From positions 133,796,001 to 133,860,000 of the forward strand of contig OZ024745.1 in the NCBI GenBank assembly GCA_964016885.1: a DNA stretch of 64,000 nt, written 5' to 3'. Within the stretch, counting starts at the first letter, position 1. Each line of letters begins with the position of its first letter. This DNA comes from Eledone cirrhosa (Eukaryota). The notes under the pieces are model-generated. The model was given only the letters and a program-made list of their open reading frames with translations. It ran no database searches and was not told where the DNA came from. The translations under genes were made by a program, and so were the position numbers. Of this stretch, positions 2,719-62,614 are shown piece after piece.

Positions 2719-2793
2719 GATGTGATACACATTTCAATGACGACAGTGGCCACACCATTCCGTGTACCCAGTGCCGTGACATCATCACACAGC
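2719..2793 (-). ncRNA. degenerate type I hammerhead ribozyme motif
   Basis: Minus strand: gctgt-GTGATGA-long stem II-GAAA-tgtgta-TC-acatc, then AATAAA. Core C3 is mutated. Confidence 0.4.
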
Positions 2794-4077
2794 TTCTTAT
2801 ATAATAAGTCCTACAGTACATACACACACACATATATATACATTCCCAGACATCCACCCTTACATATATATATATATATATATATATATATATATATATA
2901 TATATATATATATATATATGTGTGTGTGTGTATATATATATATATGTGTGTGCGTGTGTGTGTATGTATGCATTCATGTATGTTTGTAGTATGTATGTGT
3001 GTACGTATGTATGTATGTGTAATAATATATGTATAAAAGCATATATATATATATTCGGTTGATCAACTAGTTGATCAATTAGCTACAATAATCATCGTCG
3101 AAACCGATGGAAGATTACATATGTGTATATACACGTATAGTATGTTTGTATGTATAGTATGTATAGTATGTTTGTATGTATAGTATGTTTGTATGTATTC
3201 AAAGCAACATTGATAGGGATATATTTGAGGTAGCCCTCGTCATTTCACTCTCTTTTCACGGAATATAGGAAATTTATTATCTTTTAACATCAATATAGCT
3301 AATTACAATTCATGAATTATATATAAAATGTTTGATAAAAGCCGGAGGCAAAACGTCACAGAATTATCCAATGTGGGAAATTTACCAATTAAAATTTGTC
3401 TTTTATTCAATTTGTACCCAGCGAATAAGGACACATGATTCTACTTGGAAAGTTTCTTTGTTGTTTTATTTCATGGTTTGTTTAGAATAATTCAAATAAA
3501 TTTTATAGATCGCTATCATTTTGGGTGTAATTAATATTCACTAATTAAGTATTAATTGGTTATTTAAAAGTCATCGTTTGAATTAAAAATAAAAATTAAA
3601 TTAATTTTCTTTGATAAATTTATTGCTTTGTCTCAGTTCTTTCTAATGGCAATATCAAAGCAAACTGTTACGGTTTCACATTGAAAATGATGAGAGGTTG
3701 GTTTTTTTTTTTACTTCCATGATTTTCATTCAAACAATTCCTTTATTGTTTCTGGAAATTTTATGCAAAAGAAATTATATTTTAAATGACCAAATAGTTT
3801 AGACTAACAATTAATTTGCTTAAGGAATCTCAGTCGTTTTCGGTGGTCTCAATTTCTTGGTCTTGGTCTTCTGCTATATTCACATCAAAAGTACTTTATA
3901 GGAAAAGCAAATCAACACGACTACTAGCAAATTTTATGGCAATATCAAATTGACTCGAATACTTGTGTGTGTGGCAGTTCACACCTATGCAGGTTTAGCT
4001 GACCCCCTTCAAGGTATATCTCGTTGGAGGTATCTTGGGTGATTTAATGATAGGGACCCCAGTCCTATCATCTCATT

Positions 4078-4212
4078 TCTACAGCTAAGTAAACTGGAGC
4101 AACGTGAAATAAAGTGTCTTGCTCAAGGAAACAACACATCACCTGGTCCTAGAATTAAACTCACAAGCTTTCGATTGCAAGCCCAATGCTCTAACCACTA
4201 AGTCATGCGCCT
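4078..4212 (-). mobile_element. tRNA-derived SINE (family B)
   Basis: Minus strand has a tRNA-like head followed by CCTTGAGCAAGACACTTTATTTCACG. Homologous to 54806-55014 and 56250-56458. Confidence 0.65.
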
Positions 4213-5562
4213 TCTTGACTGGTATATTATTTATTTTGGGGACTTGCCCCTTCCCCTTCTTTTAGCAAGGGAAATTTTATTGTACATTATATTTGCTACA
4301 ATCATTTTTACTTCAATCCCATTTTCAGCAATACGGAGGAGATGAGTGGATTTTAGTGAATTTGCTGTATAGCCTTACAAGCTAAGGCCTTACAGACACG
4401 AGGAATCCGTCTTTCCACCAGACACTGTACATCTATCACCACAATATCCAACGCATTCTTTTTATATGAGTGATCTGTGAGAGATTTGGCTCCTATTTCT
4501 ATCTGGTCAAACAACTATATAAGCAATTCATCAGTAGTTTGATTTAAATTGAGTGAGTATCCAAAAAAGTGAATTATCTGTTTTTTCCCATAATTTTATT
4601 CCTCCCTTGAAAAAACAGTCACATTTCTCTTAAATCAATCCCTATTGGTTTAAATAAAGACTGATACATTACATAATGTACTCTCACGTGTAAAGAAGTT
4701 GCGATGGTTATGACAGAACCTTCCCTCAGTATATATCTTCCTGATAATGTTTGACCAAGGGCTAAAAAACAATCATATTTAATTCAAACTAACAAGGGAT
4801 TTTTAAACGACCAATCAATCTGCCAAAACAGCAGCCACATTCTTTTCAGATCACACCTTAAAAAGCGGAATAAATATACGGGATAATGTAATCCTCATTA
4901 TACAAACAGATGGCCAGGTCTGAATTATCATTCCACATGGGTTTATTAAATCATAACTGTAACAACTCAACAGCTGTAACAACACAACAACAAAAACAAT
5001 ATAAGATTGCCAATATGAAATGGATGTCATCGAGCATGTAGCCAAAATATAACAAATTTTATTATCATTAATTTATCAAATTATCAGAGTCATTTTCCAC
5101 AGATAAACCTCAACAGTTTTCCAGAGTTTTAACGTTCTTTCTTACACTTTTTAGCTTGGGGGGATGGGGAGCCTGTACAATTTTGCTCGACCTACTAGAA
5201 ATATCAGACAAATACCACTTGAAATACATTATCATCATAGATCTATTTAAATAGTCATTAGTTAATGTATAGCCACATCCCATAAAACAAGGTTAGAGCT
5301 AGAATACTTTTGAAACTATGTCTGCCCTATCAGGGTTCACATTGAGCTAAACAAAATAACAATACGTGTTATACCTTCTTTCTATAACAGGAATGGTATA
5401 GGTTTTTTAGACCTACACTATGAGACTCAGAAACATGCGAATACAGTTCTATACTATGAACATATGTATGTAATGTGACGGTTCTATATTTTAAAGTTGG
5501 CGCAAAATAGGATATTGTGATGCTGGTGGGAAGTCAACCGACATTTGAAATGACTTACCATT

Positions 5563-5736
5563 ATCGTGGATTGGCAGTATCGGTTGAGGGTCGGACGCCA
5601 TGTTTTGCAGCAAAGAGTTACGGCCCGTTATCATCTGAGTTAACTTTGCTTTTCATCCTTACGTAGTCTATAAAATAAAGTACCAGTAATACACTAGGAT
5701 AATTGTTGGTCTTGTGCCAAAAGTAGAAACAATTAT
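5563..5736 (+). mobile_element. tRNA-derived SINE (family A)
   Basis: TGGCAGTATCGG...GCAAAGAGTTACGGCC...TTTCATCCTTACG...ATAAAATAAAGTACCAG, repeated about 10 times in the window. Confidence 0.7.
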
Positions 5737-6158
5737 CTGATCTTTTGTTCTATTGTGCTAAACAACATTGTTTGATATATTTGGAACGCTCTTTGATGGT
5801 AAAAACTAGTAAATAATTAACTGCTTAAAGCCAAATACTTAAATTTTCGTTATATTAGACTTAAAATAATTTCTGATATGCAATATGTCCTTAAAGAGTG
5901 TTATATTAAACTAATCGAAATAGTTATTTGAAACTCTATGTCAAGCAAAATAGAATTTCTCTTTCTTTAAGTAAGAAATACAATATGTTGACAAATTTTC
6001 AATTCATAAATAAACAGTTATTTGATTACTTGGAAAATAATTCTCGATACATATTAGTATATGCACACTTTATAAAATATGAAATATTTGGAAGATAAAG
6101 AGTACAGGGTATAGGGGAAATAGCATTTCTTCTTCTCTTCTACTTCGCCCACTTATTC

Positions 6159-60298: not shown

Positions 60299-61073
60299 GT
60301 ATATTACCCACATAACACTATTTTACTATTTTCCTGAAGTTCAAACAGGGCATATGTTTGTGTTTTGTATTTCACTATATTTTCATGAGCAGCATTGTGA
60401 TTGTTCGTTTGTTGTTTTTATCCTTATATGTTAATACCATTTCGACATTTTTTCTGAGCAGAGTCTATAAGTTTTTTATCCATCTTTCTTTATGATGCGT
60501 AAGTGGTTTTCTTTGATTTTCACGTCAATTTCGACAGATATATCGGTGAGTAGTATAGCCATGACAATCTTACATATCAGATTGTGTCAATACTTATACT
60601 ACATATTTTCCATTTTTATACGAAAGTGACTGATATAATATTTTGTTGTTATTTCGCCTTGATCCCACAAATCTGTTGTCAAAGGTGTTCCAATCCCAAC
60701 ACTTATCCATGGCATTCATTCCCAACCAACCCATCTTTTCTATATATATATATATATGTATATATATAAATATATATATATGTATATATATATATGTGTG
60801 GGGGGGGGTGCCCAGCATGGCCTCAGCCGGATGGTTGGAACGGGTATATATTATATATATATCTGAAGGAAGGGAGTATGGGAGTTTCAGGGCATCCTCT
60901 TTTCCAAAGTGGATTAATTCAAATTTATCATCGTTCAGCAGCATATTATTCTTTTCCGCCAATTATATATGTGTGTGTGTGTGTGTGTGTGTGTGTGTGT
61001 GTGTGTGTGTGTGTGTGTGTGTGTGTGTGTGTGTGTGTGTGTGTGTGTGTGTGTGTGTGTGTGTGTGTGTGTG

Positions 61074-61915
61074 TAATTGGCGGAAAAGAAAGAATAATAA
61101 TATGCTGCTGAACGATAATAAATTTGAATTAATCCACTTTGGAAAAGAGGATGCCATGAAACTCCCATACTCCTTTCCGTTAGGTGAAACTTTCGTGGCA
61201 TCCAATAATATCAGAGACGTGGAAGAAATTGTGGATAACATTAGCTGGGCCACTCATATAAACAGCAATGTTGACATGGCCCACAGAATGTGTTCTTGGA
61301 TTCTCAGAACCTTCCAGTCTAGAGATATCACACTGTTATCCTTCCCTTCTCCACTTTTGCTCGACCCCACCTTGAATACTGTTGTCCACTGTGGTCACTC
61401 CACACGAAACAAAGTATCATGAAAGTTGAAGCACCTCAAATGTCAATTACAAAAAGGATAGATGGCATAACAGGCCTTGACTATTGGGGTCGATTAGCGC
61501 CGTGAGCGCTACATTATCTGCATGATGTGGAAAATATTCCATCGGCATTGCCCAAAAGATGTTGGCATCACCTTTAAGGTACACCCAAGGCTTGGGCTCC
61601 GTGCTATCCGTCCACGACAAGAATCTCACTCGCATCTCATAACAAGATACGACACAGTTATTTCACCTCAATTGGCCCCGCTCTGTTTAACATTACACCA
61701 AAACACATTAAAACAGAAACATAAAGTTCAAGAAGTCTTTAGACAAATTCCTTCAATAAATCGCGGATAAACCTCCTACACCCGGATATGTCTCCGTAAA
61801 CAATAACTCTCTACTTGAGTGGCTCGTGGTGTCAAAATCTTGATTTGAAAAACTTCGCCAGGTGGTGCTATTAAGTTATACATGGCCTGGGCCAATATTG
61901 GCCGAAACCTGTCAG
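61074..61915 (+). mobile_element. CR1-type LINE 3' fragment with an inverted 5' duplicate at 60873-60965
   Basis: NNMLLNDNKFELIHFG...IRDV..IVD..SWATHI...AHRMCSWILRTFQSRD. Confidence 0.75.
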
Positions 61916-62341
61916 TGTTATCAAAGTTATATACATACACAAACACACACACACACACACACACACACACACACATATATATATATATATATATATATTA
62001 TATATATATATATATTTATATATAGATATAGATATATAGATATATATATATATATATATATATATATATATATATAGATATATAGATATATATATATATA
62101 TATATATATATATATATATATATATATATATATATATATATATATGTGTGTGTGTGTGTGTGTGTGTGTGTGTGTGTGTCTGTGTGTGTCTGTGTGTGTC
62201 TGTGTGTGTCTGTGTGTGTCTGTGTGTGTGTGTGTCTCTGTGTGTGTGTGTGTGTGTGTGTGTGTCTGTGTCTGTGTGTGTGTGTGTGTGTGTGTGTGTG
62301 TGTGTGTGAGAGAGAGAGAGTATGCTGCGAGATCATTAGAC

Positions 62342-62429
62342 GTGTCCGTCGAACCTGCAGGTCCAGAATCAGACAGATCCACACAATGATCGCGTCTCGA
62401 GCTGTCCGCCGGCGAAACAATTGTAACAC
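62342..62429 (+). ncRNA. decayed hammerhead motif, homologue of 10872-10965
   Basis: gtgt-CCGTCGA-...-GAAA-caattg-TA-acac, then AATAAA. The core is mutated. Confidence 0.4.
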
Positions 62430-62569
62430 ACAATAAATTGAGTTCAGATGCATCACTGATTTTTCGTTTTATATATATATATATATATATATATATATAT
62501 AGTCACACAGAAACAAAATGGCGTAGGATAGAAGAAAGAAAAGGCACAGAAACGAAGAAAGGAATCCCC

Positions 62570-62614
62570 AGTCACTGAAGAGGTCACAGAGTGTGTGACG
62601 AAAGGACTATGACT
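62570..62614 (+). ncRNA. minimal type I hammerhead motif
   Basis: agtca-CTGAAGA-g-gtcaca/tgtgac-GAAA-ggac-TA-tgact. Confidence 0.65.

Follow-up and report, generated by a model that had tools for sequence, protein, structure and literature searches.

The presence of numerous hammerhead ribozyme motifs between (TA)n microsatellites in a 64,000-nucleotide stretch of the Eledone cirrhosa genome (contig OZ024745.1, positions 133,796,001 to 133,860,000, here termed the window) raises the question of which elements have placed them there. An earlier note on this DNA had listed 16 such motifs, all of which we confirmed at their positions and with the described sequence, and its claim of intact core letters (CUGANGA, GAAA and UH) was borne out for ten of them, although stem I is damaged in the copy at 12977 and stem II is broken in that at 55637 (Table 1). 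In the 47,557 bases of the window that lie outside arrays, a type I descriptor retrieved 6–7 motifs, compared to a mean of 0–0.025 (at most one) over 40 global and as many local dinucleotide shuffles, and to none in the reversed sequence, and a looser descriptor retrieved nine compared to a mean of 0.07 in 30 shuffles, so that the control proposed in the note sets 6–9 motifs against 0–0.07 per shuffle. In an Rfam cmscan of the window, no hammerhead family was among the best 150 of 189 matches, and those listed included only microsatellite-driven microRNA matches. The 16 motifs are real hammerhead ribozyme sequences, which may cut RNA. Two further motifs, at 7690 and 43397, had been overlooked, as had an incomplete one at 14839.

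Table 1. Hammerhead motifs and element remnants in the window (positions are those of the window, L numbers refer to loci, PLE: Penelope-like element, RT: reverse transcriptase, EN: endonuclease).
Feature	Position	Strand	Assignment and related copies
Decayed hammerhead, C3 to G	2719..2803	-	Intact-core family copy elsewhere (L255, 94% identical)
Decayed hammerhead, related to 52059 family	7678..7760	+	Overlooked in earlier note
Intact-core hammerhead, long branched stem II, stem III CAATTG	10872..10965	+	3' end of Hydra-type PLE, family B1; L328/L329 share ~3 kb with RT and EN similarity
Intact hammerhead, 270-bp island (11073-11343)	11200..11264	-	3' end of young Hydra-type PLE, family A; longer copies L164/L165 with RT, GIY-YIG and CxCX5C linker
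Intact core, odd palindrome CCACTGG, stem I damaged in window copy	12974..13029	-	
Intact hammerhead, stem III TGCGCA	15314..15384	+	3' end of Hydra-type PLE, family G; endonuclease continuous with 3' UTR in L258, L004 shares 1.26 kb
Broken GIY-YIG endonuclease remnant	19230..19660	+	Same PLE as the 20373 hammerhead at its end
Hammerhead, family-wide U4C core, 82-nt stem II insert	20373..20487	+	3' UTR of Hydra-type PLE, family B2; 3' end near 20537, then tail to ~20700
Single insertion with inverted 5' part	22722..23152	.	Hammerheads 22868-22928 (-) and 23044-23098 (+); 3' end of Hydra-like PLE, family C; endonuclease upstream in L336 and L348, inverted in L335
Intact-core hammerhead	43317..43403	-	Overlooked in earlier note; looser descriptor
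Intact core, odd palindrome CCTTGGG	50741..50809	+	Family E; PLE link only via related subfamily (L323)
Decayed hammerhead, C3 to U	52059..52122	-	3' end of older Hydra-type PLE; endonuclease upstream in L355/L361
Damaged copy of abundant family, family-wide U4A core, hairpin stem III	55171..55225	+	Likely 3' end of Neptune-type PLE (one locus, L185); second partial copy near 56617
Single insertion, non-coding 422-nt tandem unit	55370..56120	.	Family D; >1 unit on minus strand and inverted part; hammerheads 55637-55679 (-, stem II broken) and 55869-55911 (+, intact)
Hammerhead-like motif, U4A in window copy	56719..56779	-	Rare family
Decayed family B1 copy, two core changes	62342..62431	+	82% identical to 10872
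Intact core, non-palindromic stem III GGAC	62570..62614	+	3' end (62502-62835, with tail) of young Neptune-type PLE, family F; longer copies L154/L168 with RT and GIY-YIG

The motifs at 22871 and 23044 and those at 55637 and 55869 each reside on a single insertion, and 10872 and 62342 belong to the same family; the 16 motifs thus represent about 14 insertions of 13 families. The palindromic stem III, described as usual, is indeed the prevalent case, except for 62570 and 55171, where it is non-palindromic and a true hairpin, respectively, with odd seven-base palindromes found at 12977 and 50741. Among 115 motifs from unbiased sampling, 104 contain a perfect, wobble or odd palindrome. Changes in the core of six motifs are also present as noted. 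Among them, U4C at 20373 (36 versus 2 homologues) and U4A at 55171 (29 versus 3) are family-wide and do not represent decay.

The origin of many of the motifs is manifested in longer family copies elsewhere in the genome. In seven of the 13 families (A, B1, B2, C, F, G and the 52059 family), such copies run unbroken from RT and/or GIY-YIG coding sequence, located upstream in sense orientation, through the 3' UTR into the hammerhead. Nine of the 16 window motifs, from six Hydra-type families and one Neptune-type family, are in this way identified as PLE 3' ends. For family B2, coding sequence is found upstream in 29 of 51 homologues, which were partly selected for this property. The linker CxCX5C of Hydra elements with its CxxC and CxH motifs was read directly in proteins of families A, B2 and G, and the clade names were assigned by motifs rather than by a tree. 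A Pfam search of the family F protein returned matches to RVT_1 and GIY-YIG below the curated cut-offs, and that of the family A protein returned no match to either domain. The connection to PLEs consists of one locus for 55171 and of a related subfamily for 50741, and for 2719, 12977 and 56720 a search for PLE coding sequence upstream gave no match. An endonuclease beside family B1 in L291 was discarded as a link since it belongs to another hammerhead-bearing PLE family. The proposal of PLE-type minimal hammerheads from many (TA)n-targeted families stands, but not their description as unrelated, as the families of 11201, 52059 and 7690 share flanks and stems I and III.

Copies of a family stop at either of two fixed 3' sites, 20–210 nucleotides past the motif and against (TA)n, and their 5' ends are variable or inverted. 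These two sites match the PLE tail as described in PMC11167929. As expected of endonuclease-bearing PLEs, the insertions are truncated at the 5' end, occur as partial tandem copies, may have their 5' part inverted and carry the tail optionally. Out of 142 insertion starts located at or before position +10 relative to the cut site, 126 lie more than 10 nucleotides upstream of it and 7 within three nucleotides, a count that excludes rows of families B1 and A past +10, which were swamped by (TA)n matches. We thus propose, with a probability of about 0.85, that the motifs are mostly 3' ends of PLEs, which were likely left behind when (TA)n-primed reverse transcription stopped after a few hundred bases. 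Based on published PLE biochemistry, the endonuclease would nick (TA)n and the RT would start at either of two sites within the RNA, which would account for the optional tail, while truncation or a second priming event would generate islands of 100–400 bp and fold-backs. Cleavage by the hammerheads is predicted to be weak and to require dimers formed via the palindromic stem III, with tandem transcripts as the RNA to be processed. Most inserted cDNAs were copied from RNA that had not been cut at the motif or had been rejoined there, and the solo copies are for the most part likely inert passengers. In the most abundant PLE with open ORF that we found, the 3' region does not contain a hammerhead core, so that the motif is dispensable for spread.

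The arrangement of hammerhead-tipped PLE 3' ends at TA microsatellites is already known, whereas its scale is unusual. Minimal hammerheads of PLEs (Cervera and de la Pena 2014, PMC4209133) share the type I fold, the short stem I, the palindromic stem III and AU-rich flanks, and they similarly occur in many families per genome, mostly as single motifs of truncated PLEs and with opposite-strand pairs 100–700 bp apart. Their number of about 2,000–9,000 per genome compares to an extrapolated 3–5 x 10^5 in our case, where we also find longer palindromes (6–8 nucleotides), stem II inserts of up to 82 nucleotides and the family-wide U4C and U4A cores. The U4A core was not found in the surveyed literature, which covered few subscription papers. 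Variants of PLE hammerheads were reportedly described by Lunse et al. in 2017, and U4A and U4C may be among them. Hydra-clade PLEs (Craig et al. 2021, PMC8557442) resemble our families in the C-terminal GIY-YIG domain, the CxCX5C linker and the CxxC and CxH motifs, in their (TA)n targets, the hammerhead near the 3' end, tandem or inverted insertions and the tail. That clade was described as small, from 23 proteins, whereas here at least six families comprise thousands to tens of thousands of copies with 3' UTRs of 0.8–1.6 kb. The supplement of the same study contains a (TA)n-targeting octopus family, Hydra-1_Obim, to which we liken our elements by motifs and target. The assignment of family F, and likely of the U4A family, to Neptune-type PLEs is by motif, as their 3' end contains a hammerhead and a CX2-5CxxC linker precedes GIY-YIG; as a difference, a second very abundant Neptune-like family of this genome has no hammerhead core.

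In a random genome sample of 540 kb, the descriptors detect one motif per 7–8 kb, and not one per 3 kb as had been claimed, although in the window a count by hand that includes decayed copies is about twice that of the descriptor. From this density we estimate a genome-wide load of roughly 300,000–500,000 motifs, which is above any published count that we found; literature on hammerheads in octopus and other cephalopods, including few subscription papers, did not contain a similar density. The claimed association with (TA)n holds, as 58 of the 68 sampled motifs (85%) have (TA)5 or longer repeats within the next 200 nucleotides downstream, compared to 29% upstream and 18% of random positions, and so does the adjacency of AATAAA, found within 30 nucleotides of 22 of the 68 motifs versus 3%. 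The motif families fall into more than 30 sequence clusters.

The earlier note had suggested a population of ribozyme-bearing mini-retroelements, and it would accordingly be conceivable that most motifs belong to dedicated non-coding units, termed retrozymes, which replicate via small circular RNAs. This holds in the window only for family D (55637/55869), a unit of 419–428 nucleotides that is repeated head to tail, up to six or more times in an array, and that contains a single type I hammerhead and no ATG-initiated ORF above 51 codons. As a circle, the unit is 71% paired (z = -9.6, 30 shuffles), and insertions longer than one unit fit a circular template. Tandem families with units of 311 and 467 nucleotides were also found in the sample. 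We consider such a general origin improbable, since non-coding tandem units of 311–467 nucleotides cover two of the 16 window motifs and 14 of the 68 sampled ones (26 of the 68 were left unassigned), whereas the others that could be traced lead to protein-coding PLEs, mostly as 5'-truncated 3' ends. Moreover, arrays are equally explained by uncut linear multimers, and eight of nine Xenopus retrozyme dimers showed no in vitro cleavage (bioRxiv 2026.07.22.740005). Non-LTR retrozymes (Cervera and de la Pena 2020, PMC7229834; Li, Clavereau and Pollet 2026, bioRxiv 10.64898/2026.07.22.740005), for which a dependence on PLEs was proposed, resemble family D in that their units, a few hundred bases long and arranged in tandem, are non-coding, low in GC and highly self-paired and carry one type I hammerhead each. 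Family D differs by its minimal palindromic motif without the canonical tertiary contacts between the loops of stems I and II, although the search of the 2026 preprint also admits minimal motifs, by a length slightly above the range of 170–400 nucleotides, and by directly visible targeting of (TA)n, inversion of the 5' part and presence of the PLE tail. It matched none of the eight PLE 3' ends with which it was compared, and thus no autonomous partner, its sole match being to the 467-nucleotide unit. In the preferred reading, the non-coding tandem units likely borrow PLE enzymes in a retrozyme-like manner, and the same genome is suited to ask whether retrozymes are passengers of PLEs.

Still less probable is an action on the host, where two sense copies in a long pre-mRNA would pair via shared stem III palindromes, even across families, and cut the transcript. 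At one motif per 7–12 kb, copies are dense, and different families share TATATA (21 of 115 motifs), CTAG (12) and CAATTG (4). Myosin gene spans contain fewer motifs (0.82–0.84 per 10 kb) than random DNA (1.26–1.37), with antisense copies slightly more common than sense copies. This bias is not significant in either count (20 sense versus 27 antisense, p = 0.38; 19 versus 29, p = 0.19), the antisense number is inflated by one six-copy array, and intact copies in sense orientation persist in the gene spans, two of them as a tandem pair. Thus neither of two genomic tests, strand bias in gene spans and 5' ends at the cut site, supports cutting of host pre-mRNA, and published minimal hammerheads of PLEs are poor cleavers even as dimers (PMC4209133). 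A bolder version appears similarly doubtful, in which the animal would carry the densest hammerhead load yet described (several hundred thousand), unrelated families with a common stem III palindrome would form mixed dimers in long introns to cut nascent host transcripts, and the U4A family, with about 60,000 copies, would constitute an active natural core variant. Regarding the preferred reading as PLE 3' ends, hammerheads of these elements were found weak in vitro and dispensable for insertion (PMC4209133, PMC11167929). A good natural test bed for their role is provided by the present genome, whose hundreds of thousands of copies comprise more than 30 clusters, variants of the core that are shared by whole families, non-coding derivatives in tandem, and young active families of which some carry the motif and others lack it. 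In genomes of this kind, many short islands flanked by (TA)n can henceforth be annotated as 3' ends of PLEs.

Finally, chance matches in AT-rich, microsatellite-rich DNA, for which only the low complexity of some stems would speak and to which one or two sampled long-stem matches may belong, are practically dismissed by the 68 motifs in the 540 kb sample compared to 0–1 in local shuffles (74 versus 0–2 with the looser descriptor) and by homologue searches yielding families with hundreds to thousands of candidate copies. The proposed inspection of family alignments revealed stems that vary while pairing is kept, with compensatory stem II changes in family A. In an alignment of 23 copies of this family, which were chosen by the flank downstream of the motif, 93.6% of cells are paired and 25 are compensatory compared to 10.6 after shuffling, with two-sided changes at three stem II pairs. 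The number of covarying pairs (4) is not above shuffles (281 of 500), and as the copies are related, the covariation count does not equal a probability. We thus regard the alignment of family A as moderate evidence for compensatory changes within hammerhead families.

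All 16 hammerhead motifs that an earlier note had claimed for the window (G000:C5:133796001-133860000 in assembly:contig notation, from an animal assembly of 3.0 Gb) were recovered in their places. They represent about 14 insertions from 13 families, since two pairs are the inverted halves of single insertions and motif 62342 (motifs are named by window position) is a decayed copy of 10872. In the 47.6 kb outside a 66-bp tandem array, a first structural descriptor detects 6-7 motifs compared to 0-0.025 per shuffle (40 global and 40 local), and a looser descriptor finds 9 in the window compared to 0.07. 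The feature is real and well explained, with new members of an already known system, which are notable for their copy number and core variants.

By tracing the families upstream, we reached coding sequence of Penelope-like elements (PLEs) for 9 of the 16 motifs (Table). Family D (55637/55869) is a strongly self-paired non-coding tandem unit of 419-428 nt and retrozyme-like. Such units have been argued to be non-autonomous PLE derivatives in a 2026 preprint, whose retrozyme-type units are likewise non-coding and tandem. The endonucleases of 11201, 20373 and 15315 contain the CxCX5C linker, the defining mark of Hydra PLEs, for which the (TA)n targeting and hammerheads also found here have been reported, with an octopus Hydra family listed in the supplement (PMC8557442). 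The 62570 family carries a Neptune-type linker. A single locus ties 55171 to a Neptune-like ORF, and 50741 is connected to PLEs only via a relative; tracing upstream of 2719, 12977 and 56720 revealed no link to PLE coding sequence. A recent octopus repeat annotation does not refer to ribozymes where it mentions a PLE expansion (PMC13282606).

Features of the window and of other loci (L-numbers) of the same genome
Feature	Location	Strand	Description
11201	L164/L165		RT and GIY-YIG endonuclease 1.6 kb upstream
20373	19230-19660		endonuclease remnant inside window
62570			PLE coding sequence upstream, open stretch of 467 codons
10872/62342	L328/L329		PLE coding sequence upstream
22871/23044	L336, L348		PLE coding sequence upstream
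52059	L355, L361		PLE coding sequence upstream
15315	L258		PLE coding sequence upstream
Hydra-type PLE family	L291/L308-L327		3,345 candidates
Abundant hammerhead family	14839-14965		partial copy; about 35,000 copies estimated
311-nt non-coding tandem hammerhead unit	L183:8600-9750, L208, L256		CGCG stem III, arrays of at least 6
467-nt non-coding tandem hammerhead unit	L236:5200-6200		CTAG stem III, part-similar to family D
(TA)n-flanked islands/fold-backs	16170-16310, 2550-2600, 51710-51830		short, no hammerhead, recurrent across many loci
Young Neptune-like PLE	L022-L050, e.g. G000:C6:55895560-55899789		very abundant, ends at (TA)n
66-bp array	24925-41367	+	249 copies
Non-LTR retrotransposon	8161-10240	-	between (TAA)n runs; RT and C-terminal restriction-like endonuclease; presumably R4/Dong-like
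Presumed RTE-like LINE fragments and disrupted DNA-transposase-like frames	13531-14844, 17523-17972, 52640-54393, 58544-59700	-	

To estimate abundance, 54 evenly spaced stretches of 10 kb (540 kb) were sampled. The first descriptor identifies 68 motifs, 61 with intact core, in 28 of the 54 stretches (1, 0 and 1 in local shuffles), and the second 74 (0-2 in shuffles). Extrapolated from 0.02% of the genome, this amounts to 3.8 x 10^5 (bootstrap 2.6-5.0 x 10^5) and 4.1 x 10^5 (2.6-5.8 x 10^5) motifs, with some families escaping both descriptors. Published counts stand at about 9,000 for minimal motifs in Xenopus tropicalis (PMC4209133) and at 126,247 for canonical ones in axolotl (PMC7229834). 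The 68 motifs distribute into 28 in PLE-linked families, 14 in tandem units and 26 without assignment, and all collected loci comprise 261 motifs in 33 clusters. In the further Hydra-type family (Table), the hammerhead has a stem II of only 2-3 pairs and is missed by the strict descriptor.

The predicted (TA)n enrichment was borne out, with (TA)5+ following 85% of sampled motifs within 200 nt, compared to 18% of random positions, and preceding 29%. Insertions have variable, frequently inverted 5' ends and terminate 3' at one of two sites per family, about 80-160 nt apart (a measure confounded in family D by internal TA runs), matching the PLE 'tail' tied to two internal RT start sites (PMC11167929). 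The hammerhead-free islands are probably tails left by other PLE families, in which truncation occurred downstream of the motif.

For stem covariation, 40 family A (11201) copies were gathered by downstream flank alone and the 23 non-redundant ones reaching both core halves were aligned, leaving out truncated or duplicate copies. Pairing is retained in 93.6% of cells and two-sided changes exceed shuffles (25 vs 10.6), whereas the number of covarying pairs does not. The U4C core of 20373, known from viroids as a natural variant of weak activity (PMC3088659), and the U4A core of 55171 (22 copies counted over 1.11 Mb, which extrapolates to about 59,000 genome-wide) are both family-wide; for U4A we found no published report, with Lunse et al. 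2017 represented by a review summary (PMC6765202).

The palindromic stem III of 104 of 115 motifs and the literature, where activity of such hammerheads is low, suggest cleavage as dimers. In the family at 14839-14965, stem III forms a full hairpin with a 14-nt insert, so that the hammerhead could fold as a monomer. Among 142 insertion starts, 126 lie more than 10 nt upstream of the cut site and 7 within 3 nt, which argues that most templates would have been uncut or rejoined there. The suggested cutting of host pre-mRNA finds no support in strand counts across 571 kb spanned by myosin exons (sense 20 vs antisense 27, p = 0.38; second descriptor 19 vs 29, p = 0.19), a sample of low power.

The young Neptune-like PLE contains many open 784-codon frames of 97-99% identity; its examined 1.4-kb 3' region lacks a CNGANGA core, and it may carry another RNA motif. 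The coding sequence of the non-LTR retrotransposon is divided between two frames, of 346 and 405 codons. In the 66-bp array, one plus-strand frame is open for 1367, 1444 and 2648 codons with a 22-residue Ser/Thr-rich repeat and minus frames show periodic stops; the possible readings are a giant mucin-like exon and a satellite.
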